From positions 1 to 64,000 of the IMG/VR virus record IMGVR_UViG_3300017565_000002: a stretch of DNA of 64,000 nucleotides. One strand, written 5' to 3'. This document shows, piece by piece, positions 2,650-62,817 of the stretch. Each line of letters starts with the position of its first letter. The stretch's first letter is position 1. Origin of the DNA: a virus (lineage: Duplodnaviria; Caudoviricetes). Position numbers and translations under genes: made by a program. The notes below the pieces were generated by a model. That model was not told where the DNA came from and did no database searches. It worked only from the letters and a program-made list of their open reading frames with translations.

Positions 2650-5600
2650 ATGATAGATCTAAAGGTTCTTAAACCTAATGTGGTATATCGGATGCAGACG
2701 ACCTTTCGATTACCGACTGAAATGAAAGATCCTTCACATGGTTCTGTTTACATGGCCGTTACAAAAACTCCAGATGGTACCGCCTCCTTTTTTAGTCATC
2801 CAAGATTGGCCGGTCGGTTTCTGTCTAAGTATCTAACCAACCGCATATACAATTATAGGATATATAATCTACTAATTAAGTACAGAGTTAAGGATGGCGA
2901 ATTAAAGCAAGAATTTAATACGAAGATAAAACCAAAGCTTCCGGCTTTGGATCTAGCAATGACGCCGGTTGTACTTGCTAGGCGAAACTACATCTACGAC
3001 TTTTCCCAGTTCAATGAACGATTTTTCGCCACGAATGATACTCGGATTGGCCTACGGCGAGTTAACGAGTATTTTCGATTATTCAAGCTATTTACCGTTG
3101 ATAAGGTAAACCAAACGCAATACACAAACCGGGTGCTATTTATTCCAATCTATGACTGGGTTAAAACAACCCGTGATACCAAACTATTCCGTATCCAAAA
3201 TACGGATAACTTTATTTCGCTATTCTATCTCAAATTGGTCAATGATCCTGATTATTTTAAAACGAATTTTGCCGGATGGAAGTTCTATTTCACAACGGAT
3301 ACGCAATGTCTCTACTGGAGACCAGATGATATTCATGCCAAATCCGCAGAGGAATTAGTTGCTCTGCTCAAGCGGTTCAGACCGGATGGTAAACAAGATA
3401 CGACGGTAACCGACGAAGCTGGGCAAGAAGATATCGAGACAAATGCTGCTACAAACCGAACGTTAATTGCAGATCAAGTATCACAAAACTTAGTTGCGTC
3501 CAATATTGAACCAACGGATCAACTGGTAGGTGCGTTAACCGATAAGGTAATTGAAAAGACGGGAATTAATCTATATTTACCTAATCCGCCATCGATCGAT
3601 GTATCCAAAGTCATCTCACCAAAGGAAATCGAGCTTGAGCAGGTTCAAGAAACGATGGAGCAAATCGTCCCTAAGTCTAGAGCACGCCTAGCGAGAGAAA
3701 CAAAACTGATTGAGGATATGAAGAATATTTCATTTGACGGTATGACGTTAGATGAGATTACAGCTAGGGCTAAAGCAAATACAATTGAAACTACCAAGTT
3801 TCCTGTAGATGTGATTAACCCAAGTTTGGCAGAGATGAAGTTTCCTAATTTTGACGAAGCCTATCTGAAAAATCTATATAAAGCAGATATCGTTAAGATT
3901 GTAACATCCTTTCAGTATAAAGACAAGCCACTGTATTTATTCGAAACCGAGGTTAAAGACGCAAGCGATGCTTTAAATGATCTGGAGGAATATGTCTTCA
4001 GGTTTGAAGATGAAGAAGGTCGTCGTCATACGTTCAGCATCCTCATGCCGAAGTTTACGGATAATCGTACGATGAAAATCGGTGGGAATACAAAGATCAT
4101 GTCCAATCAGATCATTCCTCTACCGATTATTAAAACTAGACCGGATACTGTACAGATATCGACCAATTACCAAAAGGTATTTATCCATCGATTTGGTCAG
4201 CAAATTTCTCCGAAGATTTCCATGCTGTTCAAATCACTAGGCGAACTGATGAATAAAGAAATTAAGATTGAGATCGGTGAAGCGTCGTCTTCCAATCGTC
4301 AATACATTCGGACCATCGAATATGATGAACTTGCATCTCGTTATAGGAGAATTATTCTCCCCCATACCGAGATCCATTTCAACCAGAATGTCATCCGTGA
4401 TGAAATTAAGAAGCTTGGCATTACGGGTACAATTCCGGATAATGCAATCCCTGTAGCGATAAAGAATAAGAGACCTATCTTTTTAAATACCGAAACGAAT
4501 TTGATTTCAGCGGCAGATTCTTCTGCGGTCGAGATGGATCTTGTTGATTTTATCGTCAATGAGATTTCATCCGCAGATCAGTCGTTTAAGTCTGCATTTT
4601 CATCCATGAAACCTGCGAAGAAATTCATGTATTCTCGGGCAGATATCATGGCTAAGAAAGTTCCGATTGTCATCCTCCTCGGGTATCTGGATGGGTTAAT
4701 CGGTTTAATGAAGAGAGCAAAGATTGATTATCGAATCATCACCAAGGATGTAACCCGTCGCAATCTCGACGTAAATACAAAGCGGGAAGCTGTTATTGAA
4801 TTTGAAGATGCATGGTTAGTATATCCAATATACCCGTTGAGAAATTCGCTTCTCTTGAATGGGTTTATGGAGATTCCAACGAAGATTTATCGGATCGAGC
4901 AATTCCTGAGCAAAGATGTTTATCATGAGCTATTCGAGACATTATTCGGAAGAAAAAACATCGGGTATGCATTCGAAAACTTCCAACAGTTGTTAATCGA
5001 CCCGATAACGGAAGATGTACTCCGCGATTATGGTCTTCCGACAGATTTTATCGATGTATTCCTGTATGCCAATACACTATTGGAGGATAACGCATTTAAC
5101 GAAGATAGTGATTTGGATGTACATCGAGTGAGATCAAACGAAATGGTTGCTGCTTTTATGTATAAATCGTTGGCAGAAGCCTACGAACAATACCGATTCA
5201 CGGCAAACAATCCGAATCCAACCCGTGTTTCTACGAGGAAGGATTCTGCAATCGTAAATATGCTGACATCACAGGTCACGAAGGATTTCTCTCGACTGAA
5301 CCCGATTTATACGCTCGAATTAAAGAGTTCCAGCACATGGAAAGGACCGGGTGGTATGAACGTAGATAGAGCCTTTAATCTGTCGAAACGTGCATATCAT
5401 CCATCCATGATCGGTGTACTGAGTCAAGCATCTCCGATTTCTTCTGCTATTGGTATTGCTAGAACATTGACGTTGGACGCAAACGTCATCTCGGCAAGAG
5501 GATATATCCAAACCTCTAAAACCAAAGAAGACATCAATAAGCTACCGACAACCAAACTGATCAGTGCGGCGGAAGCTCTGGTTCCATTTGGTGTGACATC

Positions 5601-6822
5601 TGATGATCCAGAGCGTACCGCAATGACATCTGCACAGAGCCGCCATACCATTGCTTGTATCGGAAGTCAACGCGCTCCGTTGGAAACTGGATTTGAGAAA
5701 ATACTTCCCCATCTCATTGGCGACACCTTTGTATATAAAGCCAAAGATGATGGTAAGATCATTAAAATTGATGAATCAACCAATCTTATGGTCATCAGAT
5801 ATCGTGATGGGAAAATAGAAACCGTCAATCTTAACCCCGAAATGGGTAAGAACTCAGGAAGTGGTTTCTATATTTCCAATAAATTATCACCCCTGTTTAA
5901 AACTGGCGATACGTTTAAGAAAGATACAATTCTCGCCCACAATAAAGACTTCTTTACCATTGATAAACGTTCAGGTAACCCGGTATTTATGACTGGCCCT
6001 TTGGCTCGTATTGCATTCCGCTATTCACCGAAGGTAATCGAGGACTCCACGGTATTATCGACTAGGTTAGCGGAAAAAATGAGTAGCTATATCGTAATAG
6101 AGAAGGAAGTTACACTGGGGCGAAACTCCAATGTAAGCTTTATGATTAAAAAGGGTCAGAATATTGACGTCAATGAACCGCTCATTATCTTCGATACTTC
6201 TCACACAGATGAGTTGACCAATAAAGTGCTTGCGAAGATTGGGGAGGATTCCACCAAGGATCTTCTCGAAGCTTCTAAGACCCCGATAACCTCGAAACAC
6301 AAGGGCGTGATTGAGGACATCAAGATTTATTACACCGTACCCAAAGATGAGTTATCTGACTCCATGCGGAAAATCATCGAAGGATACGAAACCGAGAATG
6401 AAAACCTCATCAAGGCTACTGTGAAAGATACGGGACTTAAGCATGAAGAGGTCAAGATATCCTTGACGCAAGTTGAACAGATCACACCTGACTTGTCCGG
6501 AAAGGTAAAGGGTGTGAAAGTCGGGGAAGGTGTACTGATTCAGTTCTATATTAAGTATAAGGACATATTCGGCGTCGGTGATAAGCTCACTTCTTTCGTA
6601 GCAACTAAAGCCATAGCTTGTGATGTATTTAAGGACGGAGAGGAACCTTATCTATTGAGTGACCCTACAGATAAAATTGATCTATACAGTGGTGTCATAT
6701 CTGTAGGGGCTCGGATGGTCATGAGCCTCCTGAAATCCGCACAAGTTAATGGTGTACTCATCGGTGCAAAAAAAAATGTAGCGAAGATGTATGAAGAAAT
6801 ATATGGCGAAAAGTTGAAATAA
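2650..6822 (+). CDS. rpoB: Phage multisubunit RNA polymerase beta-like subunit (large piece, probably virion RNAP)
   Basis: DDPERTAMTSAQSRHTI (cf. DDANRALMGANMQRQAV), PLETGFE, VGDKLTSFVATK (both catalytic Lys), GARM. Ends before the GEME C-terminus, as in split jumbo-phage beta; long non-RNAP N-terminal extension. Confidence 0.9.
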   Translation: MIDLKVLKPNVVYRMQTTFRLPTEMKDPSHGSVYMAVTKTPDGTASFFSHPRLAGRFLSKYLTNRIYNYRIYNLLIKYRVKDGELKQEFNTKIKPKLPALDLAMTPVVLARRNYIYDFSQFNERFFATNDTRIGLRRVNEYFRLFKLFTVDKVNQTQYTNRVLFIPIYDWVKTTRDTKLFRIQNTDNFISLFYLKLVNDPDYFKTNFAGWKFYFTTDTQCLYWRPDDIHAKSAEELVALLKRFRPDGKQDTTVTDEAGQEDIETNAATNRTLIADQVSQNLVASNIEPTDQLVGALTDKVIEKTGINLYLPNPPSIDVSKVISPKEIELEQVQETMEQIVPKSRARLARETKLIEDMKNISFDGMTLDEITARAKANTIETTKFPVDVINPSLAEMKFPNFDEAYLKNLYKADIVKIVTSFQYKDKPLYLFETEVKDASDALNDLEEYVFRFEDEEGRRHTFSILMPKFTDNRTMKIGGNTKIMSNQIIPLPIIKTRPDTVQISTNYQKVFIHRFGQQISPKISMLFKSLGELMNKEIKIEIGEASSSNRQYIRTIEYDELASRYRRIILPHTEIHFNQNVIRDEIKKLGITGTIPDNAIPVAIKNKRPIFLNTETNLISAADSSAVEMDLVDFIVNEISSADQSFKSAFSSMKPAKKFMYSRADIMAKKVPIVILLGYLDGLIGLMKRAKIDYRIITKDVTRRNLDVNTKREAVIEFEDAWLVYPIYPLRNSLLLNGFMEIPTKIYRIEQFLSKDVYHELFETLFGRKNIGYAFENFQQLLIDPITEDVLRDYGLPTDFIDVFLYANTLLEDNAFNEDSDLDVHRVRSNEMVAAFMYKSLAEAYEQYRFTANNPNPTRVSTRKDSAIVNMLTSQVTKDFSRLNPIYTLELKSSSTWKGPGGMNVDRAFNLSKRAYHPSMIGVLSQASPISSAIGIARTLTLDANVISARGYIQTSKTKEDINKLPTTKLISAAEALVPFGVTSDDPERTAMTSAQSRHTIACIGSQRAPLETGFEKILPHLIGDTFVYKAKDDGKIIKIDESTNLMVIRYRDGKIETVNLNPEMGKNSGSGFYISNKLSPLFKTGDTFKKDTILAHNKDFFTIDKRSGNPVFMTGPLARIAFRYSPKVIEDSTVLSTRLAEKMSSYIVIEKEVTLGRNSNVSFMIKKGQNIDVNEPLIIFDTSHTDELTNKVLAKIGEDSTKDLLEASKTPITSKHKGVIEDIKIYYTVPKDELSDSMRKIIEGYETENENLIKATVKDTGLKHEEVKISLTQVEQITPDLSGKVKGVKVGEGVLIQFYIKYKDIFGVGDKLTSFVATKAIACDVFKDGEEPYLLSDPTDKIDLYSGVISVGARMVMSLLKSAQVNGVLIGAKKNVAKMYEEIYGEKLK

Positions 6823-12466: not shown

Positions 12467-14149
12467 ATGAGAATTAATCAACTCATCCCACGTGAGGCGA
12501 TGGACAAAATCGCCAAATGGGTCGATCGGCCTATCAACCAGATAGAAAAGACCGAAAAGTATGAAAAGCTCCTCAAGCGGTATGGATTCAATCAACTTGA
12601 CCTTGGAACCAACCGCGAGATCTATACGCATGAAAAATACCCGAAGGTCGTATTCAAAATCGCCTTGGATGAACAGGGCGTATTGGACAATTTGAATGAA
12701 TACGAGAAATCTGATAAATCCAAGTATTTCCCGATGAGCTATGACATCGATACCGACGGCTATGTGCTTATTCAGCAGCGGACGCCGGTGATGCAACTCT
12801 CGACGTTCCGGGAAAAGGAAGTACAGAAACGGGTTCGGAAGATCTTGAGGCAGCTCGACAGCGAAGGATTCTATCTGTTGGATCTGGGGGCTGATAAGCA
12901 TAAGAACTTCGGTATGGATAAGAAGGGTGAAATTTATATCCTCGATTTTGGTTATGTCGGGTATAAATCCTTGTGCAATTTCAATTGCCCACACACTCGG
13001 GTTATCAAACCGGGCAAACAGGAGTTTTGCAAAGGTAAGTTGGATTACAACAAAAGCTTTACAATGCTCGTCTGCGATGAATGTGAGAATGCATTCAAAG
13101 TGGATGTTGCAATGGAAGGGTATACACAAACCATGTATGCCAAACCACCGGAGAAGGAGGAATTCCGCCCATCGAAGGATTTGGAGGATTTCTACAAAAG
13201 CTTCAATAAACACCGGGATCGTGGCACATTAAAACGGTATGTTTCACTGACAAAGAGCGAAGAGAATCGGGTGATGACCCCGGTTGTATCAACGAAACCG
13301 ATAACAGAACCACCATCGGCAAAGGATCGTTTCCTTGCATTGGCAGGTAAGGTGGCAGCGGCAGAAGACAGTGATAAAGTTCAACTACCTGCACTTGACG
13401 ACCCAATGGATGACGACGACGAAGATGACGATGATGAAGAATTCGATGCACCTCGCACGTTAAGGTCACAGATTGATGATGACGACGATGATGAGGACGA
13501 GGATGAAGAGGAAGATGAACCATATGTGGATGCTGAGGGTGATGTATATGAAACAGCTCCACGGCCAATTCTGCATCATGATGAAGACCGTGATGTGGTG
13601 CAAGATAATATCGAAGATGGTCAATATCAAAAAGCCATGGAATACCTCATGGCAACCGGAGTCTCGGAGAAGAATTCTGGAGAAATTGTAACTGCATTAT
13701 TCTATGAGAGATTCCCGGAAATGAAAAGGATAATCACAGACTTTGATAAAGAAGTCGAACGCAGGGTAGCTGAACGGGAAGCTATATTCCGCCTTGAGCA
13801 TGCCAATGCAAATATAACTGAAAAAGAACCTGAGCCGGTACTGATGGAAACTATTGATGATATTTCAGTATTGGAAGACTTGGGTATTGTGGTCAGCAAG
13901 CCAAGCGATGGTGAACTCCAAAATGAGATTCACATCGGGATGTCCGCAGAAAATCTGAAGAAGCGGCCGATTATCGTTATATCCAAAAACGATGTCGTCT
14001 ACTATATAGACCTTCTCGCACACGTTGACCGGTTGATTGAGTTCAAATCTCCACTCTTTGATGGGGATATGATCGTCACGTCAATGGTTGCAGAGCCGGT
14101 CGATGAATTCAATCGGGATTATGATGATCGATATTTCGAAAACGACTGA
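12467..14149 (+). CDS. Protein kinase-like fold protein with Cys4 zinc ribbon and acidic low-complexity linker
   Basis: LDLGTNR (Gly loop), VVFKI, NLNEY, DLGADKHKNFG (catalytic D...N), ILDFGY; then CxxxC/C...CxxC; poly-D/E tract. Confidence 0.75.
   Translation: MRINQLIPREAMDKIAKWVDRPINQIEKTEKYEKLLKRYGFNQLDLGTNREIYTHEKYPKVVFKIALDEQGVLDNLNEYEKSDKSKYFPMSYDIDTDGYVLIQQRTPVMQLSTFREKEVQKRVRKILRQLDSEGFYLLDLGADKHKNFGMDKKGEIYILDFGYVGYKSLCNFNCPHTRVIKPGKQEFCKGKLDYNKSFTMLVCDECENAFKVDVAMEGYTQTMYAKPPEKEEFRPSKDLEDFYKSFNKHRDRGTLKRYVSLTKSEENRVMTPVVSTKPITEPPSAKDRFLALAGKVAAAEDSDKVQLPALDDPMDDDDEDDDDEEFDAPRTLRSQIDDDDDDEDEDEEEDEPYVDAEGDVYETAPRPILHHDEDRDVVQDNIEDGQYQKAMEYLMATGVSEKNSGEIVTALFYERFPEMKRIITDFDKEVERRVAEREAIFRLEHANANITEKEPEPVLMETIDDISVLEDLGIVVSKPSDGELQNEIHIGMSAENLKKRPIIVISKNDVVYYIDLLAHVDRLIEFKSPLFDGDMIVTSMVAEPVDEFNRDYDDRYFEND
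13408..13515 (+). repeat. (GAY/GAR)n coding low-complexity tract (poly-Asp/Glu)
   Basis: gatgacgacgacgaagatgacgatgatgaagaa... encoding DDDDEDDDDEE and DDDDDDEDEDEEEDE. Confidence 0.8.
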
Positions 14150-22896: not shown

Positions 22897-24108
22897 GTGA
22901 TGACTATGAGACTCCTTACAGAGGTCGAAGTTGAAGAGATTCTGAAACTTAAGCAGGATGATATCACCAATACCTTGCTGAAGTCTTACTTTGGGCGGAC
23001 AGTCAAGAGACCAACAGCTCGATTCTCAACGACGGATTACTTTATGCTACCGGAAAATGCATGTGCAAAAAATCTTCCCGGTTATACGACACTTGGAGCC
23101 TACATCTTTAATCGGCTGATTATCGATGTACACTTCTCCGATGTGACCGGATATGTCAACGCTCCTATAACGGGAAAGAACTTAAATGCTGTATACAACC
23201 TTATTTCCGAGGCATATGCGAATGACCGTGTCAACTGGGAGCAGTTCTTTGAATTGATTGATTCATTGGATTGGCTTGGCGGTGGAGATATAGCAGAGTT
23301 GATCAACGTGTCGTTGTCAAATAATCTTTTTATCCTCCCACCACACATTAAGCAAAGACGCGAAGAATTATTCAAAGAATATGAGAAAGAAATCCAAGCC
23401 GGGGATGTAATTGCAGGTGCGAAAATTGAGCAAGAGCTGGTAAAAATGGCCCAAGCCCATCTTCAAACACTCCCGGAGTGGGATAACTTCGCATCAGATG
23501 CCAAACTTAATTTCGATAATAACTACAAGACAATGATGCTAATGAAAGGTCCGATACTTAACACAAGTACAGGTGACTGGGAGATTGCAACCTCCAACTA
23601 TGATGATGGCATCCGTAAGGAAGAGTATCCGCTCTTTGCCGACTCCGCTGTCTATGGTACATTCCAACGGGCAAAAGGGGTTGCAATGGGTGGATATGCG
23701 ATCAAGAAAATCATTGCGACATTACAAGATGTAGAAACCGCGGATAAGGATAGTGACTGTGGCACCAAAGACTACCTAACAACCTTCATCGATCCGTATT
23801 TCAAAAGCGAACTCATGTATATGTATATCGTCGAGGGATCAAAACTCGTCTTACTGACACCCAAGAATTTTGATCAGTATAAGGGGAAAACAGTACAGAT
23901 GAGAAGTCCGATGTATTGCAAACATGCAGTTCCATTAGTATGTAATAAATGTATGGGTGAACAGCCTTATCAGAAGGATCTGAAGATGGTTGGGTTGGCT
24001 GCTGGTAAGATCGGTTCGACACTGCGGGTTAAGAAGCTGAAGGCTTTCCACAATAAGAAGGTTTACATCTATCGAGCAACGATAGCTGATTTGGTCGGCG
24101 ATGATTAA
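22897..24108 (+). CDS. rpoC: Phage RNAP beta-prime C-terminal piece (probably virion RNAP)
   Basis: Bridge-helix-like GGYAIKKIIATLQDV, zinc site DCGT...RSPMYC...CNKCMG, trigger-loop-like VGLAAGKIG...KAFH. Confidence 0.85.
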   Translation: MMTMRLLTEVEVEEILKLKQDDITNTLLKSYFGRTVKRPTARFSTTDYFMLPENACAKNLPGYTTLGAYIFNRLIIDVHFSDVTGYVNAPITGKNLNAVYNLISEAYANDRVNWEQFFELIDSLDWLGGGDIAELINVSLSNNLFILPPHIKQRREELFKEYEKEIQAGDVIAGAKIEQELVKMAQAHLQTLPEWDNFASDAKLNFDNNYKTMMLMKGPILNTSTGDWEIATSNYDDGIRKEEYPLFADSAVYGTFQRAKGVAMGGYAIKKIIATLQDVETADKDSDCGTKDYLTTFIDPYFKSELMYMYIVEGSKLVLLTPKNFDQYKGKTVQMRSPMYCKHAVPLVCNKCMGEQPYQKDLKMVGLAAGKIGSTLRVKKLKAFHNKKVYIYRATIADLVGDD

Positions 24109-24829: not shown

Positions 24830-26347
24830 ATGCAAGAGACGATGAGTAATGGAGATGTACTAGACTACCGCGACGTAAAGCAGTTCAAGATTCCTAAGAT
24901 TACTCGCTATTTTGAAGACTATGATCGACCCATCAAGAAAGAAAAGCTTGAAAAGGCCGGTCTGGATGAACACGCAGAAGCTCAGATCAAATCAGGTAAA
25001 GGATTCCTAATCACAAACCCGGAATCGGTTGACAGCGACGGAAAGAAAACGATCGACGGTATATTCTCTCCCAAGTTTGGCTACACGCAGTTCGATGATC
25101 AACTAGGGACGAAGGATGCTTATCGTTGTCAATGTGGTGAGACCACAGGTGCAATAAATCTTGATGAAATCTGTGAAGTATGTGATACACCCGTCCAATT
25201 CATGGATGCAGACCTCACGATCATGGGTTGGATACCACTAACTCAATATGTCGTTATTAATCCATCTATGTACATCCACTTGGATGCATTATTCGGAAAG
25301 GGTGAACTAGAGGAGATCCTCAAGGTCAATACTTCCAGAATCACAGTGGATGGTATATTGAAAACGGAAACTGATCCAAAGAAACCTTATCATGGTGTAG
25401 GGATGATTTATCTCCATACACACATCGATGAGGTGATGGAGTATTATCTCAAGCAAAATCCAGCAAAGAAAGAGCATTACGATTTACTCCTCGAATACAA
25501 GATGGCGATCTTTACTCACTATGTCCCGGTATATAGTGCGATCATTCGCCCCCATATCGAGAGTAACGAAAAGGTCAGAATATTCCCGGTCAATACAATC
25601 TATGAGACAATCATGAATCACTACCAGCAAATCATGAGTGAACCCGGAAATATGCTGGCGATTCTTCCGGCTCTACATGAAATCCAGCAGGAATTCAATG
25701 AGCTACACGAATTGATTATCAAGACATATATCGGCAAGGAAGGCATGTTCAGGGGTAACTTCGGTGGTGTCCGGATTGACTATGCAGGACGAAGCGTAAT
25801 CATTCCGGGCGTAGATCTGAAGCCTGATGAGATTAAGATTCCTTATATCAGCGCTGTGGTATTCTTGGAATTGGAATTGATTTACCTGCTATGCATTCTC
25901 GATGATATTACCGAAAATGAAGCGTATCAGGTAATCAATGAAAGCCTCAAAGTTTTCAACCCAAGAATCTATGCGTTGATTCAAACCATTCTACAGAAAA
26001 GTAAGACGCCCATCTCCGCATTGGTGGGTAGACCTCCATCACTATCTGACCGATCGGTTCGATTGCTTCGAATCGTTGGCGTGGAAGATAGTGTGGACAA
26101 ATTGTGTATGCGTTTAAGTCCGAGTCTTTTGGATGGATATAAAGGTGACCACGATGGTGACAGTCTATATTATATTCCATTGAAAGATCATCGCCTGATC
26201 AAGACGTTTGAGCAAACCTTGAGTCCGAGGTATAACTATATCTCTAGGACGAATGGTTTATATTCCAACCGAATGGAGTATATCAAAGATTATATCATCA
26301 TTCTCTCTGAGCTGTATTCATTGGCAAAGGATAATGATGACGATTAG
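24830..26347 (+). CDS. rpoC: Phage RNAP beta-prime N-terminal catalytic piece (probably non-virion RNAP)
   Basis: GIFSPKFG, zinc finger CQCG...CEVC, FRGNFGGVRIDYAGRSVI, GRPPSL, GDHDGD Asp triad. Confidence 0.9.
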   Translation: MQETMSNGDVLDYRDVKQFKIPKITRYFEDYDRPIKKEKLEKAGLDEHAEAQIKSGKGFLITNPESVDSDGKKTIDGIFSPKFGYTQFDDQLGTKDAYRCQCGETTGAINLDEICEVCDTPVQFMDADLTIMGWIPLTQYVVINPSMYIHLDALFGKGELEEILKVNTSRITVDGILKTETDPKKPYHGVGMIYLHTHIDEVMEYYLKQNPAKKEHYDLLLEYKMAIFTHYVPVYSAIIRPHIESNEKVRIFPVNTIYETIMNHYQQIMSEPGNMLAILPALHEIQQEFNELHELIIKTYIGKEGMFRGNFGGVRIDYAGRSVIIPGVDLKPDEIKIPYISAVVFLELELIYLLCILDDITENEAYQVINESLKVFNPRIYALIQTILQKSKTPISALVGRPPSLSDRSVRLLRIVGVEDSVDKLCMRLSPSLLDGYKGDHDGDSLYYIPLKDHRLIKTFEQTLSPRYNYISRTNGLYSNRMEYIKDYIIILSELYSLAKDNDDD

Positions 26348-27197: not shown

Positions 27198-28463
27198 GTG
27201 ATGAGCGACGTTCAACGAACTGCAAATATTTATAAATCTACAACATCGTTTAGCCACGTACTTGGCAACCTGACTGTCATTGTAGAGGATTATATCAAAG
27301 ACAATATGCCTGCCAACTTCTTTAAACAATCTCGGGCAACAACTGAAGTTGCATTCAAAGATATGGGCCGTCAGGGTTGGCGAAAGAATCTTATTGCCTT
27401 CGAACGTCCCTTTTTAATTATTGATCCAAAGTTTCTACCCAACGAAGAGTCCGAGGCGCTACCGCAACTCGCATGGGATCGCTTCTTACCTATTGACCAT
27501 AAAAACACACCAGAGTTCTATGCGATGAACTCTGAATTCTTCTTAAAGAATGAAGACCCGTTATTTTCACTTGGATATACATTCAATCGATATAAAATCG
27601 CATTTCGGATGGTTATGGTTGTCGATACCCAGATGATGAGATTATCTCTCGTCAACTATCTTCGGTCCAACTTCAGGTTTAGACACATGTTTCCCATCAC
27701 AAGGTATACCGAGACGCTTATACCATACGCTTATATTTCACATATTGCTAAGCAATTGAATATGGACATCAATTCGAATGATTTCATTAAGAAACTTAAC
27801 GAAATGTCTGTATTGCCAATCGTACGTTTATATCGTCCTGCTACTGGATATAGTGAATTTTTTGTATTAACCACATCGGTGATTCAGCTAAAGATTCCTG
27901 ACTATCCAACGGAAGATAAGACCATGAATGCGAGGGTAGAGGACTTTTCATCCGTAGAATTCACCATGGAAGCTGAAGTGAACGTGATGAATAACTTCCT
28001 GCTGATGACTACCGAGGATGTACCATCTAATCCTAATGACATGATCAACGAATACCTGATTCGGATATGTATTGAGTCTAGAACACCAGCGGTTGATCGT
28101 ATACGGAATGGTATGACACTATATACAAAGGTTGCCGTAGAGTTTGATAAAATACAAGAGGTAGTCGATATAAGACCGTTCTTAGGAAAGGATATCAACG
28201 AGGAAATTGACTATATTCAAGTCAATAATCTAACAGAACCCTACTATGAAATCGTGGTATATGAGTGGAGAAATCTATTGGATATGAGTGATCCGGATAT
28301 CATTGAACTTGATCCGGATACATTCGAACTCAAATTCAAGCAAGCCAAGATCGAAACGGTCTATACAATATTCATTTACTTTGACATGTCCTATATGGCA
28401 ATGATAGCGAAGTATATCAACGCCGATACAATACCTTGGACTGCCCCTCAACCCAAATTATAA
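27198..28463 (+). CDS. Putative virion structural protein
   Basis: 421-aa ORF, GTG start, SD AAGGAGG; composition and context typical of jumbo-phage structural genes; no catalytic motif seen. Confidence 0.5.
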   Translation: MMSDVQRTANIYKSTTSFSHVLGNLTVIVEDYIKDNMPANFFKQSRATTEVAFKDMGRQGWRKNLIAFERPFLIIDPKFLPNEESEALPQLAWDRFLPIDHKNTPEFYAMNSEFFLKNEDPLFSLGYTFNRYKIAFRMVMVVDTQMMRLSLVNYLRSNFRFRHMFPITRYTETLIPYAYISHIAKQLNMDINSNDFIKKLNEMSVLPIVRLYRPATGYSEFFVLTTSVIQLKIPDYPTEDKTMNARVEDFSSVEFTMEAEVNVMNNFLLMTTEDVPSNPNDMINEYLIRICIESRTPAVDRIRNGMTLYTKVAVEFDKIQEVVDIRPFLGKDINEEIDYIQVNNLTEPYYEIVVYEWRNLLDMSDPDIIELDPDTFELKFKQAKIETVYTIFIYFDMSYMAMIAKYINADTIPWTAPQPKL

Positions 28464-28469: not shown

Positions 28470-28494
28470 GCATAGGAGAGAATCTCTCCTATGC
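28470..28494. terminator. Bidirectional terminator
   Basis: gcataggagag/ctctcctatgc stem with A-run and T-rich flanks between convergent genes. Confidence 0.8.
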
Positions 28495-28869
28495 CTCTTC
28501 TTTCTCTTCAGGTTTAAGAATACCCAGATCGATAAGTTTATTTTCAATAAACTGTACAACCTTTTCAATCGGAATAGTCCCAATAAGCTGCTTCTCGGAA
28601 TCGGTGAATATTTCCGTATCATTGATATAACCGATTACGATTCGGGCAATTTCTGCTCTGACACCCTGCCGCCCCTCTTTCTTTTCTATCTCAGAAAGAT
28701 TACTGGCGTTTAGCAACACTTCGACAAGTCTATCACGAACCTGACTGAGAAGATCATGTTCATTGATATCTTCCCCTCTTGCCTTAGCCATGAACCAACG
28801 AACAGTTGCACCAGCGACTGCCAGAACGGCAAGTACAATTAGCCAAAATTCATATTGCTGAAGCATCAA
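28489..28869 (-). CDS. Membrane-anchored small protein (possible holin-like)
   Basis: N-terminal TM helix, own late promoter. Confidence 0.5.
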   Translation of the reverse strand: MMLQQYEFWLIVLAVLAVAGATVRWFMAKARGEDINEHDLLSQVRDRLVEVLLNASNLSEIEKKEGRQGVRAEIARIVIGYINDTEIFTDSEKQLIGTIPIEKVVQFIENKLIDLGILKPEEKEEA

Positions 28870-28918: not shown

Positions 28919-28929
28919 TTATATATTAT
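28919..28929 (+). promoter_or_regulatory. Early-type promoter TTATATATTAT
   Basis: Upstream of ppk1. Confidence 0.65.
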
Positions 28930-28970
28930 GGAACTGAATATGGGGTTCTACTTAATAGGAGGTATGTAAA

Positions 28971-31367
28971 TTGATGAATGAAAATCCACAAGAACTGAAC
29001 ACCACTGATACCACTCTGGAATTGGAAACGAAGAAAATTGATCTATCTGCCGTTGATGAGGTTGTGCATCTGGCATCATTAACCTTGCCCAACGGAGACA
29101 TTGTAGTTGGAGAATTCGGCGTAACCACCAACGCCGGTAATAATATACCGTTAATGGCGTATACGGAAGAAATGGCCAAGAAGGTCACGGAAAAGTCGAG
29201 AGAAATTATAGAGAATACTCGCAGCATTCTGAAAAATCGAGAGTTTGAAGATTTCGACGATATGGATGAAGATGATGACCGGATGTACCATGCAGAAGAC
29301 GATATGGTACAAGAGGAAGATGTGGTACAAACGATAAACTTCCCATACGTTGATCGAGAGATCTCTTGGTTGAAATTTAATCGCCGGGTGTTAGATCTCG
29401 CAGCGACGGAGAATAATCCGCTGCTGGAACGAGTCAAATTCCTTTCGATTACAAGCTCCAATCTCGATGAATTCTTCGCGATTCGAGTAGCGTCGCGTAT
29501 CAAAGAGGATGAGAATACTGAATTCAACTTGGTAGGAACCAATAAGTCGATTGTAAATCGCATCGTAAGAGACTGTGCTGAAATGCATAAAGATATGGAT
29601 GATGTATATTTCACACTGATAGATAAGCTAAAAGAAAAGGATATCGCTATACTGGATAACTTCGATAAAAACAAGGTCAAGAAGTATTTCCGGTATGACG
29701 TCAAACCTTCATTAGCTCCTCTTGCATTGGATGCGACTCGACCACTACCGCAGCTTAAACCATTTTCAATCTACATCGCGCTGTTTGTACAAGCACCGGA
29801 TGGCAATGAACGGTTTGGGTTGATTGAGGTTCCTGCTCATTTAGATCGTGTGGTCAACGTCGGTAAACGCCCATCGAAATCAAAAAAGTCTCAATGGCTA
29901 TTCATTGAGGATATTATCATTGCGAATATTCATGATCTCTATCCCGGTGCTAAATGTGAGAATGTTACGGCATTTCGGGTTATTCGTGATGGTGATACAG
30001 TCATTGCACAGGATGAGAAAAGCTATGTAAAATCAATGGCACTCCATGCAAGGAATCGGTTGTTGCACAATACACCGGTTCGATTGGATGTATGGGAAAA
30101 CGCTGACGATCGAATCATTGAGAAGATTCAGTCTGAACTCGATATCAAAGGTAAATCTATCTTCCGTATCCGTTCCAGGTTGAAACTCTCTGATATCATC
30201 CAGTTGTATAAAGCCAGTGATGATCCAGAAATGAAATATCCGCCATTCAAACCGGCCGATCCTATCCTGTCTGATCGTCCGATTATGAAGGAGTTGAACC
30301 ATAGAGATATTATGGTTCATCATCCGTATGAAAGTTTCTCGGATTCGGTTCTCCGATTCATCAGGGAAGCTTGTGAAGATCCTCATGTCATTTCGATCAA
30401 ACAAACACTCTACCGATCCGGTGAGGATTCCAAAATCGCTCGGTATCTTATTCGTGCCGCACAGTCGGGTAAGAATGTCACAGTGGTTATGGAGTTGAAA
30501 GCCAGATTCGACGAAGAGACAAATATCGAATGGGCTGAGAAGCTGAAGCAAGCTGGTGCGGTGGTTGTATATGGTTATGAGCATCTGAAGACGCATGCGA
30601 AAATGGTGCATGTATTCCGTAAAGATGCAAAGGGTGCGGCCCAGTATTGCCATATCGGCACTGGAAACTACAGTGAGAAAAATTCCAAGATCTATACCGA
30701 TTTCAGCTACTTCACGTCGAACAAGAAAACCTGTTCGGACATCAATAACGTATTCAATATGCTTACAGGTGGGATGATTTCTGATCAAATCAAATTCCAC
30801 AGTCTGTATATTGCACCGTTAGAGATTCGTCCGATGCTGAATAGTCTTATCGACGAGGAAATGACCAAAGGTAGTGATGGATATATTTCCATGAAGGTGA
30901 ATAATCTCTCTGATGTGGATTTTGTCAAGAGATTATACGATGCTTCTCAAGCCGGGGTTAAAATCGACATCATATGCCGTGGGTCTTGTTCGCTGATTCC
31001 CGGAATTCCGGGAATTAGTGATACGATCACAGTCAACTCGATCGTAGGTAGATTCCTTGAGCATAGCCGCGTGTTTGTATTTGGCAAACAAGGATCAAAC
31101 GGAATACCACCTCGGGTGTTTATCACATCGGCAGATATGATGACTCGAAATTTGGATAGACGCATTGAACTATTACTGGAGATTGAGAATCCGTCTATCC
31201 GGAAAATGCTGATTAACTACATGGATATGATGCATCAGGATAAAGTAAACTCGTACTCGATGATGCCAGACTTTAACCACGAGACTTCGATATTTGATGA
31301 TGCATACTATATCAAAAACAGTGGTGAATTCGATGCACAAGATGCATTGATCTCCGCCTATCGGTAA
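28971..31367 (+). CDS. ppk1: Polyphosphate kinase 1 with acidic N-terminal extension
   Basis: REISWLKFNRRVL, ERVKFLSITSSNLDEFF, HHPYESF, IKQTLYR, ELKARFDEE, KTHAKM, HIGTGNY, GRFLEHSR, SADMMTRNLDRRIE. Confidence 0.95.
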   Translation: MMNENPQELNTTDTTLELETKKIDLSAVDEVVHLASLTLPNGDIVVGEFGVTTNAGNNIPLMAYTEEMAKKVTEKSREIIENTRSILKNREFEDFDDMDEDDDRMYHAEDDMVQEEDVVQTINFPYVDREISWLKFNRRVLDLAATENNPLLERVKFLSITSSNLDEFFAIRVASRIKEDENTEFNLVGTNKSIVNRIVRDCAEMHKDMDDVYFTLIDKLKEKDIAILDNFDKNKVKKYFRYDVKPSLAPLALDATRPLPQLKPFSIYIALFVQAPDGNERFGLIEVPAHLDRVVNVGKRPSKSKKSQWLFIEDIIIANIHDLYPGAKCENVTAFRVIRDGDTVIAQDEKSYVKSMALHARNRLLHNTPVRLDVWENADDRIIEKIQSELDIKGKSIFRIRSRLKLSDIIQLYKASDDPEMKYPPFKPADPILSDRPIMKELNHRDIMVHHPYESFSDSVLRFIREACEDPHVISIKQTLYRSGEDSKIARYLIRAAQSGKNVTVVMELKARFDEETNIEWAEKLKQAGAVVVYGYEHLKTHAKMVHVFRKDAKGAAQYCHIGTGNYSEKNSKIYTDFSYFTSNKKTCSDINNVFNMLTGGMISDQIKFHSLYIAPLEIRPMLNSLIDEEMTKGSDGYISMKVNNLSDVDFVKRLYDASQAGVKIDIICRGSCSLIPGIPGISDTITVNSIVGRFLEHSRVFVFGKQGSNGIPPRVFITSADMMTRNLDRRIELLLEIENPSIRKMLINYMDMMHQDKVNSYSMMPDFNHETSIFDDAYYIKNSGEFDAQDALISAYR

Positions 31368-31405: not shown

Positions 31406-31416
31406 TTATATATCAT
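31406..31416 (+). promoter_or_regulatory. Early-type promoter TTATATATCAT
   Basis: Between ppk1 and the 37-aa ORF. Confidence 0.6.
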
Positions 31417-31451
31417 ATAAGTGTAATGACACAAATTTAAAGGATGTGTTA

Positions 31452-31565
31452 ATGATGACGAGAGTTAAATCGCGTTTTGGAGATTTTGATCATATTACCC
31501 ATGGTGGACGTTCTTCATCGGATGTAGATACTGACGACGATGACGACGACACAGAAGAAGAATAG
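31452..31565 (+). CDS. 37-aa acidic-tailed micropeptide
   Basis: Not in ORF track. MMTRVKSRFGDFDHITHGGRSSSDVDTDDDDDDTEEE; SD AAGGA, own promoter and terminator. Confidence 0.6.
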   Translation: MMTRVKSRFGDFDHITHGGRSSSDVDTDDDDDDTEEE

Positions 31566-31580
31566 GGAGATTTCTCCCTA
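31563..31580. terminator. Bidirectional terminator
   Basis: tagggag/ctcccta stem followed by T10. Confidence 0.75.
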
Positions 31581-31591
31581 TTCTTTTTTTT

Positions 31592-32533
31592 TTATGAATA
31601 ATTTGCCTTATACATATATGAATCACCGATGGTTGTAGTCAGTGTGAAGTCTGAAATCTTCAATACCGCAGTATTGGTTACCGGGTTCCATGAATCAATC
31701 ACCCCACCAAAGAATCCAATCATACTTAGCGGGATGTAAAAATCGCCAGTTTCATTGATTTGTATTGGGGCTGTATCCATGAATTTAATTTGCCTATTGT
31801 AATCAATATACTGCGTGGTACCATGGAAGAACGACCATTTCTTCCTGTTGAACTCGATGGAAAATGATTTCTCTTCAATGCTATACTGAGAGATCGTTCC
31901 GCCAATGGTGTCCAACAAAGGACGTGCACTGATATAGAATGTAGATGAAACGAAAATCGGCACATGATCCATCTCAATGGTTTCATATGGCTTACCATTG
32001 ATTAACTGATCTAACCGATACTCGATCTTCGATATCAATAGATTCCAAGAGGCATTATCATGCTCACGCAGCACCCGTGGACAATTCTTACCTGTCCAGT
32101 GGAAATGCTGCTTAACTCTGGAGATATCATAGTCTTTGAAATATAGGAGATGTGCAATAAGTTCAGCTGTGTTATGAATGATGTATTGGGGATTCAGTTG
32201 TGTACATAGTTCAATCTGAATACTCTTTTGATCTCCATCGCCAGTTTCACCATCACCACAAGCTCGAACAGTTTCGTTCAATGGAACTGCCTCTATTGCA
32301 CAATCTCTATCCACCACAATATGAAATCCATTCACCGAGGTATTCAACGGATCATTGAGAGAATCGATCTCTTCTTGACCCGTTGAATTATACCGAAGTG
32401 TATTATGCACTGTAATATATTCCCAATCCATAGAAGAATTAGAAGACCGCTTCGGTGATGAAGTAGGGAGGTGGATAATCTTATAGTCGAACGGTAAAAG
32501 CACTTGCAGATCAGGATAAAGAATTGTGCTCAT
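31592..32533 (-). CDS. N-acetylmuramoyl-L-alanine amidase (Amidase_2) with C-terminal copper-amine-oxidase-like stalk domain
   Basis: ITVHNT, FHIVVD, SIQIELC, VKQHFHWTGKNCP (Zn ligands H, H, C and catalytic E present); FYISARPLLDTIGG. Confidence 0.8.
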   Translation of the reverse strand: MSTILYPDLQVLLPFDYKIIHLPTSSPKRSSNSSMDWEYITVHNTLRYNSTGQEEIDSLNDPLNTSVNGFHIVVDRDCAIEAVPLNETVRACGDGETGDGDQKSIQIELCTQLNPQYIIHNTAELIAHLLYFKDYDISRVKQHFHWTGKNCPRVLREHDNASWNLLISKIEYRLDQLINGKPYETIEMDHVPIFVSSTFYISARPLLDTIGGTISQYSIEEKSFSIEFNRKKWSFFHGTTQYIDYNRQIKFMDTAPIQINETGDFYIPLSMIGFFGGVIDSWNPVTNTAVLKISDFTLTTTIGDSYMYKANYS

Positions 32534-33007: not shown

Positions 33008-34039
33008 TTAGTTCATAGGTGTCGAGTTGTCATCCACGTACTTCCTTCTCGCTCTTGTGGCAAATTGGACTAGTAGAATAATAGAGAAGAACCCTATGAA
33101 TAGTAGAATCTGCTGCATACGTGAGACGCTTACAAACTCCGTTATGCTTAGTTTTCTATTTTCATTTATGCCACTGTAGATCGATTCCAATAGACCGGAT
33201 TTTTGTATGATTTCATATACATTAAAGCCTTGTACTAAAATTAATTGATGGATATCCTGTCTTCTCCCCCGGTCGTCTACCAGTTGATTACCCAACAAGT
33301 CACGATCAAAGAAAATGTAACGAGGAACGAGGAATTCATAGCTTTCTAATGATGCCAGATTTCCGTTATTCTTTTCAAACACCGTCTTTAAATTTGATAA
33401 GCTCATAATCTCAATCTGTTCTTGCGTCGTCAACGTCGGGTTAAAAAACTGCCAAAAGATAATGGGATCTACAGCTTTCCGACTTTGATTAATGATGGCG
33501 TAGAATGCTTGTCTTGCTAGATTTGCATTATAGTGTGATTGTGCTTCCATTTCTAGTGATCTTGGACGGTCGGGAGAACTGGAAGCTAATGATGGATCAG
33601 TTATGACACCATCTTTTTTTGTCATAACAAAAATATCATTGCTGTCAGATTTAATGTCGTACATATACTTGCCCTGAATTTGTCCTGCTAAAATGTGGAT
33701 AAGCGGATTGTCATACTCTACGTTAGAGAAGTTCTGTAGATCGTAAGTCAGACGATCAATATTCTCACCATATGATTTATCAATAGCAGATACAACGGAT
33801 GGGATAACTTCCTCGTCTAACTTCACACCGGCTTTGTAGATCGTGTCTTTAATGATCACTTCAATTGTGTTCCACTCTGCGGTTTGTATTGCAGTTATCC
33901 GATCAATCTGTCTACTTTCTGCATCTAATCTGGCTACATATATGACAGATTGACAGATGGCTAGTAAGAAAGCCGCTACTAACACGGAAATACCAAACAT
34001 CCATAGTCTGTCTTTTATATGCCTCCTAATGAAGAACAT
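33008..34039 (-). CDS. Two-TM membrane protein with a large extracytoplasmic domain
   Basis: TMs at both ends. Start reassigned to MFFIRRH (34039) after SD GGAGGAA and the late promoter at 34072-34083. Confidence 0.7.
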   Translation of the reverse strand: MFFIRRHIKDRLWMFGISVLVAAFLLAICQSVIYVARLDAESRQIDRITAIQTAEWNTIEVIIKDTIYKAGVKLDEEVIPSVVSAIDKSYGENIDRLTYDLQNFSNVEYDNPLIHILAGQIQGKYMYDIKSDSNDIFVMTKKDGVITDPSLASSSPDRPRSLEMEAQSHYNANLARQAFYAIINQSRKAVDPIIFWQFFNPTLTTQEQIEIMSLSNLKTVFEKNNGNLASLESYEFLVPRYIFFDRDLLGNQLVDDRGRRQDIHQLILVQGFNVYEIIQKSGLLESIYSGINENRKLSITEFVSVSRMQQILLFIGFFSIILLVQFATRARRKYVDDNSTPMN

Positions 34040-34071
34040 TTTTAATTTTCCTCCTTCGTCCCATCGCTTAT

Positions 34072-34083
34072 TAATGAGATGTT
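34072..34083 (-). promoter_or_regulatory. Late-type promoter AACA-N6-TA
   Basis: AACAtctcatTA. Confidence 0.65.
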
Positions 34084-34116
34084 TCAATCTGTCGCAACGA
34101 AGGAAAAGACACCTCG

Positions 34117-35088
34117 TTATTTCGAGGTGTCTGTATCCAGATAAGCAATCTTATTTTCCCAACGAATCTTGCCCTTTAGTGCGTTACCCGCGGAACGAAG
34201 CCCGATGTAGACGTGTCCGTTAATGACAACGGCTTCATCTATCTCAATTCCATTTACAATTGCTCGACCTGTACCCTGAATTTTCAATGTGCTTGGAAGA
34301 GAGTCTTGGGTAAGTTTATCCGTATTAAGTTGTAGACCAATTGCGTGGGATACCGCTCGTTCTGCAATGCCTGATCGCGTATCACAGATGTGTGGATTAG
34401 CATTCATACCTAGCAACGTTCTTACATTCGGCTCAGTTGCATATATGGTTGAACTCCCACCGCCATCTAAATTAATCCCTTTTTGGCAACCAAGCGCTTG
34501 CAATACTCGTGCACAATCATCTGCCGTTAATCCATAGTCATTACTACCCCGTCCATCGACAAAGGCAACCGTTACTAGTTGGGTATCCTTGTTAATCCCT
34601 ACAAGCGTTCGGGGTTGGAGGTATAATGCGATATCATCCGGGATCTTACCTTTAGAAATGGATTCCATCGTAACGTTTTTCCCGTTATCCAATAATAATG
34701 GACCTACACAAATAGAAAATCCAACACCATCAAGGGAATCGACATGACCAATATCAAATCTCCCATCTTTATAGAAGAGATGTGGTCGGTCTTTTGTCTT
34801 GTCACTGTCGCCGAAAAGGATTTGTCCATTTTTAATCGTTTTACCAAGGATCGTTGCATCGCTTACATACGACCCATTAAACCAAAAGTTGTACGTTGGA
34901 AATTTCTTTGCGATAGATGATACGGTACCATTTTTACTGTACTCATAGGTAGCAGATTGGATTGCAATAAAGGGAATTTGCAAATAATGAATCGTCGACC
35001 AACGGTTAGCCTTACTGTAGCTGGAGACATTGGTAGCACCAAATTCGGCGACACCATTATTAATTCTCACACGACGGGTGGTTATCAT
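34117..35088 (-). CDS. Phosphodiester glycosidase (NAGPA/DUF2233) family protein
   Basis: GPLLL, PRTLVGI, VDGRG, GINLDGGGSST, RAVSHAI; short stalk-like C-terminus. Confidence 0.85.
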   Translation of the reverse strand: MITTRRVRINNGVAEFGATNVSSYSKANRWSTIHYLQIPFIAIQSATYEYSKNGTVSSIAKKFPTYNFWFNGSYVSDATILGKTIKNGQILFGDSDKTKDRPHLFYKDGRFDIGHVDSLDGVGFSICVGPLLLDNGKNVTMESISKGKIPDDIALYLQPRTLVGINKDTQLVTVAFVDGRGSNDYGLTADDCARVLQALGCQKGINLDGGGSSTIYATEPNVRTLLGMNANPHICDTRSGIAERAVSHAIGLQLNTDKLTQDSLPSTLKIQGTGRAIVNGIEIDEAVVINGHVYIGLRSAGNALKGKIRWENKIAYLDTDTSK

Positions 35089-58817: not shown

Positions 58818-59816
58818 TTAATCTTTCTTATCATTACTTGCTTTCGGGCTACCACCCTTTTTAGTCAGTTCCTTAATCAATGCTGTGGTATAAGACATTG
58901 CTCGCCAGAAGATATTGATCGCAGTGGTGATAAACTGTAATAATGCATCCATAGTACCAGTCATGATTGCAAGACCACCACGTCGTTTATGCTCATCCAA
59001 GTCTCCCTTTATTCTCGTATTCAGGAAGGCACGTTCAAGTTGTCCAAGCTCGGAGATAATCTTGGTTTTCAACGGATTCAAATTCTTAAACATCTTCGCA
59101 CAGGTATCCAATGCTTTAGCGAGACCTGATAGATTTAGCGAGGATATACTATGACTGGTTTTATTCCCAAAGAATGCAGTGGATGCACCTTGAGGGGTGA
59201 AACCATCTTTAGTTTTTTCCAAGTGGAACAATTCCCCGATCCACTTATTCAATAATTCTTGTTTTGTATCTTCCCGTATACCGTTTATTTTTACACCACG
59301 TCTGGATGCATCAACCATTGCTTTTTCCATCTCTGGTGATGTGCCATTCTTGGCAAATCCTTCGAGTGCACCAAACGATTTAACGGCAATATCCAATACC
59401 TTATTGGGTTCGATATCAGAGATCTTCATTAACCCCTCTGGGTAACTGATGGTTCCAGAGAGATTCTTTATATCGAGATTATCTATCTTCCTTTTTAAAT
59501 CATCTACATGTGCTTCGAAAGAACCCTTAAACTTATCCATCATCCAGTTTAAGAATTTTGCAATCTTCTCTTTGATGTAAGAGATGAAAATCTTGAATCG
59601 GTTTCCAAACTCCTCTTGTGCTTCGACGAATAACTGATCCGAAGATTCAAGTAGTTTATCGAACCCGGAGAGAGATTCAAATAATTCATAGGATTCAATA
59701 ATCCAAGATGAATTACGGAATTCGTTTTCATCAGTGATTGTGAAGTCTAGTGTATCACCAGATGGATCAACGATGTCACCCTCACGAATCATTCTAAGTC
59801 TTTCGTGGATATTCAT
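58818..59816 (-). CDS. Putative inner-head protein, paralog 1
   Basis: MNIHERLRMIREG tag, Glu-rich propeptide-like N-terminus, amphipathic FISYIKEKIAKFLNWM helix. Confidence 0.6.
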   Translation of the reverse strand: MNIHERLRMIREGDIVDPSGDTLDFTITDENEFRNSSWIIESYELFESLSGFDKLLESSDQLFVEAQEEFGNRFKIFISYIKEKIAKFLNWMMDKFKGSFEAHVDDLKRKIDNLDIKNLSGTISYPEGLMKISDIEPNKVLDIAVKSFGALEGFAKNGTSPEMEKAMVDASRRGVKINGIREDTKQELLNKWIGELFHLEKTKDGFTPQGASTAFFGNKTSHSISSLNLSGLAKALDTCAKMFKNLNPLKTKIISELGQLERAFLNTRIKGDLDEHKRRGGLAIMTGTMDALLQFITTAINIFWRAMSYTTALIKELTKKGGSPKASNDKKD

Positions 59817-59844
59817 ATGTGGTTTTCCTCCTTGAAGCTGTAAT

Positions 59845-59856
59845 TAATTAGCTGTT
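59845..59856 (-). promoter_or_regulatory. Late-type promoter AACA-N6-TA
   Basis: AACAgctaatTA. Confidence 0.7.
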
Positions 59857-59867
59857 TAAAAAGGAAA

Positions 59868-59894
59868 GTAGAAGGGAGTCAGTCTCCCTTCTAC
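59868..59894 (-). terminator. Intrinsic terminator
   Basis: gtagaagggag/ctcccttctac stem. Confidence 0.75.
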
Positions 59895-59902
59895 GTCTCA
59901 AG

Positions 59903-60880: not shown

Positions 60881-60906
60881 GTATATTTCCTCCTTAGTCT
60901 ATCGTT

Positions 60907-60918
60907 TAATTACTTGTT
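60907..60918 (-). promoter_or_regulatory. Late-type promoter AACA-N6-TA
   Basis: AACAagtaatTA. Confidence 0.7.
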
Positions 60919-60957
60919 TAAAAAGTGAAGGAAGGGGAAGAAATCCCCTCTCTTTAG

Positions 60958-61875: not shown

Positions 61876-61946
61876 GATTTACCTCCTGTATCTGGTGTAT
61901 TTTAATTTGAAAGTGAGAATCATGATGATTTCCATATTTTTCATTC

Positions 61947-62812: not shown

Positions 62813-62817
62813 CTTTT

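Follow-up and report, generated by a model that had tools for sequence, protein, structure and literature searches.

A polyphosphate kinase 1 gene behind a predicted early promoter in an uncultivated AR9-like jumbo phage

The ppk1 gene and the enzyme that it encodes

The stretch of DNA analysed here, referred to as the window, is the first 64 kb (64,000 nucleotides) of the IMG/VR virus record IMGVR_UViG_3300017565_000002, which is 215,803 bp long. The subject of this study is a ppk1 gene, encoding polyphosphate kinase 1 (PPK1), on the plus strand of the window. The coding sequence runs from 28974 to 31367 and specifies 797 amino acids from the ATG at 28974, or 798 if the TTG at 28971 is used; the database copy of the protein (P0002) has 797. 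A Shine-Dalgarno sequence, AGGAGG, is located on the same strand at 28957..28962, 8 nt 5' of the TTG and 11 nt 5' of the ATG. The protein is made up of an N-terminal leader (residues 1-125; 28974..29345, plus strand), delimited by codon usage, composition and an AlphaFold model, and a catalytic body (29346..31280, plus strand), delimited by Pfam coordinates. All four PPK1 domains were found in the body by Pfam, in order and at full length. These are the N domain PP_kinase_N (residues 126-227, 29346-29651, profile positions 1-106 of 107), the middle domain PP_kinase (residues 233-412, 29667-30206, positions 3-183 of 183), the first PLD-like half, C1 or PP_kinase_C_1 (residues 438-600, 30282-30770, positions 2-163 of 167), and the second PLD-like half, C2 or PP_kinase_C (residues 612-770, 30804-31280, positions 1-158 of 172). 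The NCBI equivalog model TIGR03705, 'polyphosphate kinase 1', scored 699.1 bits against a cut-off of 465.85. The 'RNA degradosome PPK' submodels stayed mostly under their cut-offs, and only NF003917 was narrowly above (477.8 vs 470). An earlier reading of this DNA made from its letters only, the sequence-only reading, had described a full PPK1 with both PLD-like halves intact; the four domains and the TIGR03705 score agree with it, and both halves are present because C1 and C2 were matched.

The alignment of the window protein to solved PPK1 chains (E = 2.6e-100) allowed the catalytic residues to be located. H542, in the motif LKTHAK (codon at 30594..30596, plus strand), pairs with E. coli H435 in LKIHAK, which we take to be the autophosphorylated histidine, and H561, in CHIGTGN, pairs with H454, which we take to be the second essential histidine. 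N164, R482, S487, R512, R670 and H698 align with E. coli N45, R375, S380, R405, R564 and H592, which are presumably the ligands of ATP and phosphate. Among 27 viral PPK1 sequences, H542 is kept in all 27 and H561 in 25, while the counterparts of the six ligands are kept in 26-27. The sequence-only reading had assigned the phospho-histidine to the motif HHPYESF. This motif is present at residues 450-456; however, it pairs with YYPYHTF of the E. coli enzyme, and therefore its histidines are not universal. The alignment rules it out as the phospho-histidine motif, whose counterpart is H542.

The AlphaFold model, built from an 18-sequence alignment, had a predicted template modelling score (pTM) of 0.76 and a predicted local distance difference test score (pLDDT) mostly between 80 and 97 across the enzyme body. 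Structures matching by fold in Foldseek were those of E. coli, Porphyromonas and newer PPK1 entries, with target-normalised TM scores of 0.81 to 1XDO, 0.81 to 2O8R and 0.85 to 9UUH, 9URI and 9URJ, which places the protein in the PPK1 fold. Since the catalytic residues that were checked are invariant or nearly so in the 27 viral sequences, the phage PPK1 looks catalytically competent, as far as can be judged from conservation.

The predicted early transcription unit

Upstream of ppk1, at 28920..28936 on the plus strand, there is a match to the consensus of the early promoters of phage AR9. It consists of TATATATTAT (28920-28929), a spacer of six nucleotides (GGAACT) and a G at 28936, which is the predicted transcription start. 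The 41 early promoters of AR9, defined by differential RNA sequencing and primer extension, were reported to share AAATATATATTAT-(6N)-G+1, and their independence of protein synthesis shows that the virion RNA polymerase injected with the genome reads them (PMC5312081). One annotated AR9 early promoter, for example, is AAATATATATTAT-ATTAAT-G. The ppk1 motif agrees with the AR9 consensus at 10 of 13 bases, including the whole TATATATTAT core, and the spacing and the G are correct. The earlier description of ppk1 as lying behind an early motif is thus upheld, in that the core is identical to that of an experimentally defined AR9 early promoter.

Matches to ATATATTAT-N6-G across the genome show that the motif is over-represented, intergenic and oriented towards gene starts. 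Of the 21 such matches, 19 fall in non-coding DNA, which makes up 6.2% of the genome. All 19 intergenic motifs face the downstream gene, and 17 of the 19 have predicted starts 1-150 nt before it. In the window alone, five matches were observed vs 0.47 expected by chance. The same early motif is found 39-65 nt 5' of the ppk1 start codon in most related phage loci, and it also precedes further copies of ppk1. A late promoter that gives continuous expression or a leaderless form of the protein was also considered, and it was rejected, as no AR9-type late motif (AACA-N6-TA/G) occurs 5' of ppk1 or within the leader. The ppk1 gene is therefore predicted to be early-only. Another protein of the window stands behind an early motif, a 560-aa product (12467-14149, plus strand) that had no PHROG match and in which 20 of 30 residues around residue 315 are D or E.

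The boundaries of the unit are marked by two hairpins. The plus-strand genes that precede ppk1 are terminated by a hairpin at 28470-28494, and a hairpin with a T-run at 31558..31593 forms a two-way terminator, which closes the ppk1 unit and also the converging late genes for lysis and structure that it faces. No terminator was found between the ppk1 stop codon and the hairpin at 31558-31593. Between them lies a micro-ORF (open reading frame) of 37 aa (31452..31565, plus strand), with the core FDHITHGG and an acidic tail, which probably shares the ppk1 transcript. A promoter-like sequence, TATATATCAT-N6-G, a one-base variant of the early motif, is located between ppk1 and the micro-ORF at 31407..31423 on the plus strand, and the same variant is present 5' of the micro-ORF in a relative (L004). 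Small ORFs with the core (F/I)DHxTxGG are found at the same position in three relatives (L002, L003 and L004), there with basic (KKK) tails.

Three further genes serve to recognise the locus in other phages. A divergent gene of 126 aa (28489..28869, minus strand) lies upstream of ppk1 and one of 359 aa (33008..34087, minus strand) downstream, both of which are in the same place in relatives. The third is a core gene of 421 aa (27198..28463, plus strand), a homologue of AR9 g251, after which ppk1 comes next in near and far jumbo relatives. This 421-aa gene was considered as a PPK1-specific partner and was ruled out because it is also a core gene of AR9, PBS1 and Staphylococcus jumbo phages, which gave no ppk1 match. 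The arrangement resembles that of AR9 in several respects: the promoters share the 10-nt core, the spacing and the G at +1, and after the g251 homologue there is an early promoter with an early cassette, which meets late virion genes that converge on it. In AR9, unlike here, the slot after g251 holds the small genes g253-g258 and there is no ppk1.

Related phages and the origin of the gene

In a database of 5.8 billion protein clusters, 14 proteins were 49-63% identical to the window PPK1, several of them encoded on contigs of 200-260 kb. Below these 14, scores dropped abruptly to bacterial PPK1 at identities of at most 43%. In a library of 1.84 billion representatives, two proteins were above the gap (856 and 734 bits) and the next scored 459. 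Among IMG/VR contigs with a ppk1 52-59% identical to that of the window, the near set, the gene is still flanked by the 126-aa gene on its upstream side and by the 359-aa gene on its downstream side. In a far set, where ppk1 is 33-37% identical and the GC content is 22-39%, the 421-aa gene is followed by ppk1, and a piece of RNA polymerase comes first in most. Thus ppk1 is not a recent acquisition, and its neighbourhood is shared by a wide range of AR9-like jumbo phages that are uncultivated.

When the RNA polymerase piece was used as a probe, 63 related jumbo loci were recovered from IMG/VR, and in 11 of these the 421-aa gene is followed by ppk1. Whole-record scanning of 32 large related records, eight of them known ppk1 positives added deliberately, detected PPK1 in 14; of the 26 records that are at least 90% complete, 13 contained it. 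Six of the other 24 carry ppk1 elsewhere in the genome, one of these matches being weak. In a public phage collection, PPK1 was matched in 16 of 50,697 records, and none of the cultured Bacillus, Staphylococcus and Listeria jumbo relatives, AR9 and PBS1 included, gave a match. The statement of the sequence-only reading that PPK1 is uncommon in phages thus holds for cultured phages but not for the gene's own uncultivated lineage, where it is common.

The only complete cultured phage genomes with a full PPK1 in that collection are those of the two Vibrio phages vB_VcorM_GR7B and vB_VcorM_GR11A (MT366760 and MT366761), which are also large myoviruses of about 200 kb. Their PPK1 is only 33-34% identical to that of the window and lies in another gene neighbourhood, with no TATATTAT motif in the 120 nt 5' of the start. 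It branches with an Opitutaceae sequence and a high-GC viral contig, that is, elsewhere in the tree, which argues for an independent acquisition by the Vibrio phages.

Two observations on partial or divergent copies were made in the related genomes. In a related phage of 207 kb, an in-frame fragment corresponding to PPK1 residues ~246-337 (L002:8001-8279) is found ~900 nt 5' of the full ppk1. It is ~80% identical to the protein P0011, which is itself 98% identical to the full copy of that phage, and it looks like the remnant of a partial duplication. A divergent PLD/PPK_C-like protein with 27% identity, 58 bits to PP_kinase_C and an open frame of 731 aa was also seen (L155-L157, minus strand, ~5355-6110; G022:C1:247478-247753). 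This protein, including the copy L169 of G022, may not be a true PPK1.

The phylogeny was obtained by a quick IQ-TREE analysis under LG+C20 with posterior mean site frequencies (PMSF), and by a second tree with FastTree to which copies were added. The rows L029, L049 and L065 of the first tree and L112 of the second were disregarded as wrong ORFs. In the IQ-TREE analysis, the near jumbo clade (A) had a support of 100 and joined the far clade (A+B) with a support of 89, and both were placed within a group supported at 99 that holds every sampled Bacillota PPK1. The FastTree analysis agreed with it, and in it one copy (G021), which shares 47% identity with a Halobacillus PPK1, lies closer to Bacillota; it is perhaps a separate, later capture. 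The window PPK1 was at most 41% identical to any protein from 185,579 bacterial and archaeal species genomes, so no recent donor is indicated. Phage ppk1 is under purifying selection, and the ratio of nonsynonymous to synonymous substitution rates (dN/dS) was 0.13-0.15 in unsaturated pairs.

The ppk1 gene is encoded by the phage and is not chimeric. The record has direct terminal repeats, an exact terminal repeat of 123 bp having been found, and is rated 100% complete by CheckV, and the GC content is even across the ppk1 region. Pieces of the multisubunit RNA polymerase of the phage are encoded nearby (22897-24108, 24830-26347 and 2650-6822), as are virion structural proteins and two endolysins. 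The sequence-only reading had named chimerism with host DNA as a possible flaw; the complete repeat-ended genome, the even GC, the phage neighbours and the conserved synteny dispose of it. It could still be argued that host DNA was mis-assembled into the phage contig or that the gene is a decaying, inactive relic, as PPK1 is typically encoded by cells and the majority of 'phage' PPK1 matches in the public phage collection resemble bacterial contigs. However, a phage promoter lies 5' of ppk1 and the unit ends after the micro-ORF at a phage terminator, the synteny is kept in more than 12 independent phage contigs, and identity to any of the 185,579 bacterial species genomes does not exceed the 41% given above. 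An origin in host DNA is excluded by this low identity, the shared flanks, the even GC and the complete, repeat-ended record, and a relic is hard to reconcile with intact catalytic residues and a dN/dS of ~0.14. We therefore regard both forms of this explanation as extremely unlikely.

By their RNA polymerase, the closest cultured relatives are the PBS1/AR9-like Bacillus phages, Listeria phage LPJP1 and Staphylococcus jumbo phages, at ~30% identity. An amidase endolysin (31592-32533, minus strand) and a phosphodiester glycosidase (NAGPA)-like protein (34117-35088, minus strand) both carry Cu_amine_oxidN1, which we take to be a Bacillota-type cell-wall-binding domain. From this domain, the strong AGGAGG sites and the hosts of the relatives, we infer a Bacillota host.

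The acidic leader and the proposed role of polyphosphate

The leader contains 31 acidic vs 10 basic residues. Its acidic tract (residues 91-125; 29241-29345, plus strand) has 16 D/E and one K/R, and ranks fourth in acidity when stretches of 30 residues are compared across the 203 ORFs of the phage. The sequence-only reading had described an extra N-terminal domain that ends in EDFDDMDEDDD. The run is present at residues ~92-103 and is acidic, but the leader extends ~20 residues further, to FPYVDRE, and contains no recognisable domain. A known domain was ruled out, as Pfam searches with this leader and with four other long ones gave no match even when E values up to 1 were allowed. No homologue of the leader, searched as a region or alone, was found in the 5.8 billion protein clusters by a word-based search that did not include the 'longer' and 'shorter' length classes, and the ESM Atlas gave no usable match. 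No similarity was found to the proteome of the phage itself, to the leaders of relatives or to the ORFs upstream in relatives. The tag MNIxERIRLIREG of the ORFs at 58818-63420 and elsewhere is not carried by the PPK1 N-terminus, MMNENPQELNTTD.

The codon usage argues that the 125-aa leader is translated, since the in-frame score of 0.28 stands beside a strong ribosome-binding site; the catalytic part scores 0.23 and the other frames -0.6 or lower. It may be asked whether the long leader is instead an annotation artefact, with the real start near residue 105-118 and the first 310-350 nt untranslated. The leaders of the closest relatives are only 20-39 aa, there are in-frame ATG codons at residues 105 and 112, and a GAGGA-like stretch lies just ahead of a GTG at residue 118, all of which fit such a start. 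On the other hand, the perfect AGGAGG is 8-11 nt before the first start, which itself follows the predicted transcription start by 35-38 nt; the in-frame codon signal is as strong in the leader as in the enzyme body and clearly negative in the other frames; and no stop codon interrupts the 375 nt. We consider the artefact very unlikely, and long and short forms of PPK1 could coexist.

In the full-length AlphaFold model, a helix at residues ~66-88 had a pLDDT of 58-74, the remainder of the leader 24-59 and the acidic tract 24-31; residues 1-140 folded alone gave 41. In relatives, the segment before the conserved DRELSW motif varies from 20 to 378 aa, with no common sequence, and is always net acidic. 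The window leader is not conserved even in the closest relatives. A 247-kb relative encodes a PPK1 with an N-terminal extension of 378 aa (L004:4888-8010, protein P0006), which has no Pfam match and is unlike the window leader. Comparison of these extensions suggests that long, unrelated leaders arose repeatedly on this enzyme. It had been proposed earlier that the leader may localise the enzyme. A conserved localisation role is unlikely, because the leader is predicted to be mostly disordered and the leaders of phage PPK1 relatives differ wholly in sequence and in length. We read the leader as a fast-evolving, lineage-specific, acidic and largely disordered tail and not as a conserved targeting domain. 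It is pure conjecture that this tail might imitate the polyanionic product within the enzyme itself, or attract basic proteins as a bait.

PPK1 is a reversible enzyme with an activity like that of nucleoside diphosphate kinase (NDK). It is the type that favours synthesis of polyphosphate (polyP), and PPK2 is the type biased towards polyP-driven synthesis of nucleoside triphosphates (NTPs). No PPK2 or PPX/GppA companion gene of polyP metabolism was found in the phage. The reading that we favour, though only slightly, is that of a genuine phage ppk1 whose competent enzyme is made early and whose polyP serves as a store of phosphate and energy. The injected virion RNA polymerase would read the AR9-type promoter, and PPK1 would be made in the first minutes of infection from what is predicted to be a single-gene unit plus the 37-aa micro-ORF, ending at a strong terminator. 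The enzyme would autophosphorylate H542 from ATP and pass the phosphate to the growing polyP chain, so that, early on and in an ATP-rich host, phosphate and phosphoanhydride energy would be stored as polyP. Later, the same reversible enzyme would return the store to ADP and GDP during the bulk replication of the 216-kb genome. Net flux would be towards polyP because PPK1 is present without PPK2 or PPX and because ATP is high in a fresh infection. The sequence-only reading had proposed a buffer of phosphate or energy, a rewiring of stress signalling and a scaffold for a replication compartment as possible purposes; of these, the buffer seems the most economical.

The same enzyme may instead work mainly in reverse, tapping polyP granules of the host to regenerate ATP and GTP for phage transcription and replication from the first minutes. 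The reversibility and NDK-like activity of PPK1 would permit this, and the predicted early expression suits the priming of NTP pools. Simple hydrolysis of polyP would not be expected, given that PPX is absent from the phage; in addition, the nearest bacterial PPK1 is from Bacillota, so a host that holds polyP is plausible. However, the class biased to NTP synthesis is PPK2, of which the phage has none, and at the high ATP/ADP ratio of a fresh infection PPK1 runs to synthesis. We consider predominantly reverse operation possible but rather unlikely.

Another explanation is that polyP acts as an effector that remodels the host, through activation of Lon-type proteolysis, binding to nucleoid or RNA-chaperone proteins, chelation of Mg2+ or blunting of defence, with the leader tuning the partners. 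It was reported that the early protein 30.5 of phage T4 binds the host Ppk (bioRxiv 10.1101/2024.12.17.629029), an example of other phages targeting polyP metabolism early. The net acidic N-terminus of every phage-clade PPK1 would agree with an effector, and the fact that many jumbo phages of different samples have retained ppk1 would suit a function that goes beyond coping with scarce phosphate. On the other side, no partner, target or link to defence was found in our analysis, the leaders have no common sequence and so present no conserved interface, and what is known of regulation by polyP derives mostly from E. coli and not from Bacillota. An effector role is unlikely in our view. The earlier suggestion that polyP scaffolds a replication compartment found no support in this analysis.

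Several points weigh against the reading of PPK1 as an early-made builder of a phosphate and energy store. The three bases 5' of the promoter core are AGT at ppk1 vs AAA in AR9, and the AR9 virion polymerase is sensitive to single-base changes outside the core. The early class of ppk1 follows from the identity of its motif with that of AR9, a phage at ~30% protein identity. Both trees were made by quick methods and carry a strong composition bias, the phages and the Bacillota being low in GC. Which way a reversible enzyme runs on balance in vivo cannot be read from the sequence.

Compared with bacterial PPK1 (E. coli Ppk, PDB 1XDO/1XDP; TIGR03705), the window protein shares the four domains with the two PLD-like C domains, the fold and the key residues. 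It differs from the bacterial enzymes in that it is only 30-41% identical to them, carries the acidic, disordered N-terminal extension of 125 aa that is without homologues, and is encoded by a phage behind a predicted phage RNA polymerase promoter.

There are reports of viral ppk1 and ppk2 as auxiliary metabolic genes from activated sludge, reservoir sediments and cold seeps. Li et al. described such virus-encoded genes in metagenomes (2025, Water Res, pmid 39476778, as cited in PMC13188868), and ppk was listed among the viral auxiliary metabolic genes of cold seeps (PMC12106651). As summarised in the citing article, the metagenomic cases resemble ours in having a PPK on a viral contig that is proposed to raise polyP in the infected cell. 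These reports are at the survey level, unlike the complete jumbo genome, early motif, conserved locus and monophyletic phage clade described here. Our literature search returned no paper that pairs 'polyphosphate kinase' with 'jumbo phage'. The existence of phage ppk1 as such has already been reported; what is new is the lineage-wide, early-promoter and syntenic picture, together with the variable acidic leaders.

The textbook auxiliary phosphate genes of phages are pstS and phoH, and we know of no laboratory study of a phage that builds polyP itself. The present phage offers a system in which this can be tested, with a complete genome, a predicted early start and an intact enzyme whose catalytic histidine is named. 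More than 20 related phage copies in one locus add a natural series with and without long acidic leaders.

In a broader and more doubtful form of the proposal, early polyP synthesis would be the defining strategy of a large, uncultivated AR9-like branch of Bacillota jumbo phages, ppk1 being present in about 40% of the near-complete genomes that were sampled. PolyP would then also act as a polyanionic effector or condensate that reorganises the cell or blunts its defence, and the acidic tails would be regulators of the enzyme or of host partners that mimic polyP or nucleic acid. We consider it improbable that this extended picture is correct. If polyP does rise early in infection, the finding would reveal how a phage with a 216-kb genome obtains its phosphate and energy, and it would link phages directly to the cycling of phosphorus through polyP. 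If host proteins are instead the target of polyP, this would represent a new kind of host takeover.

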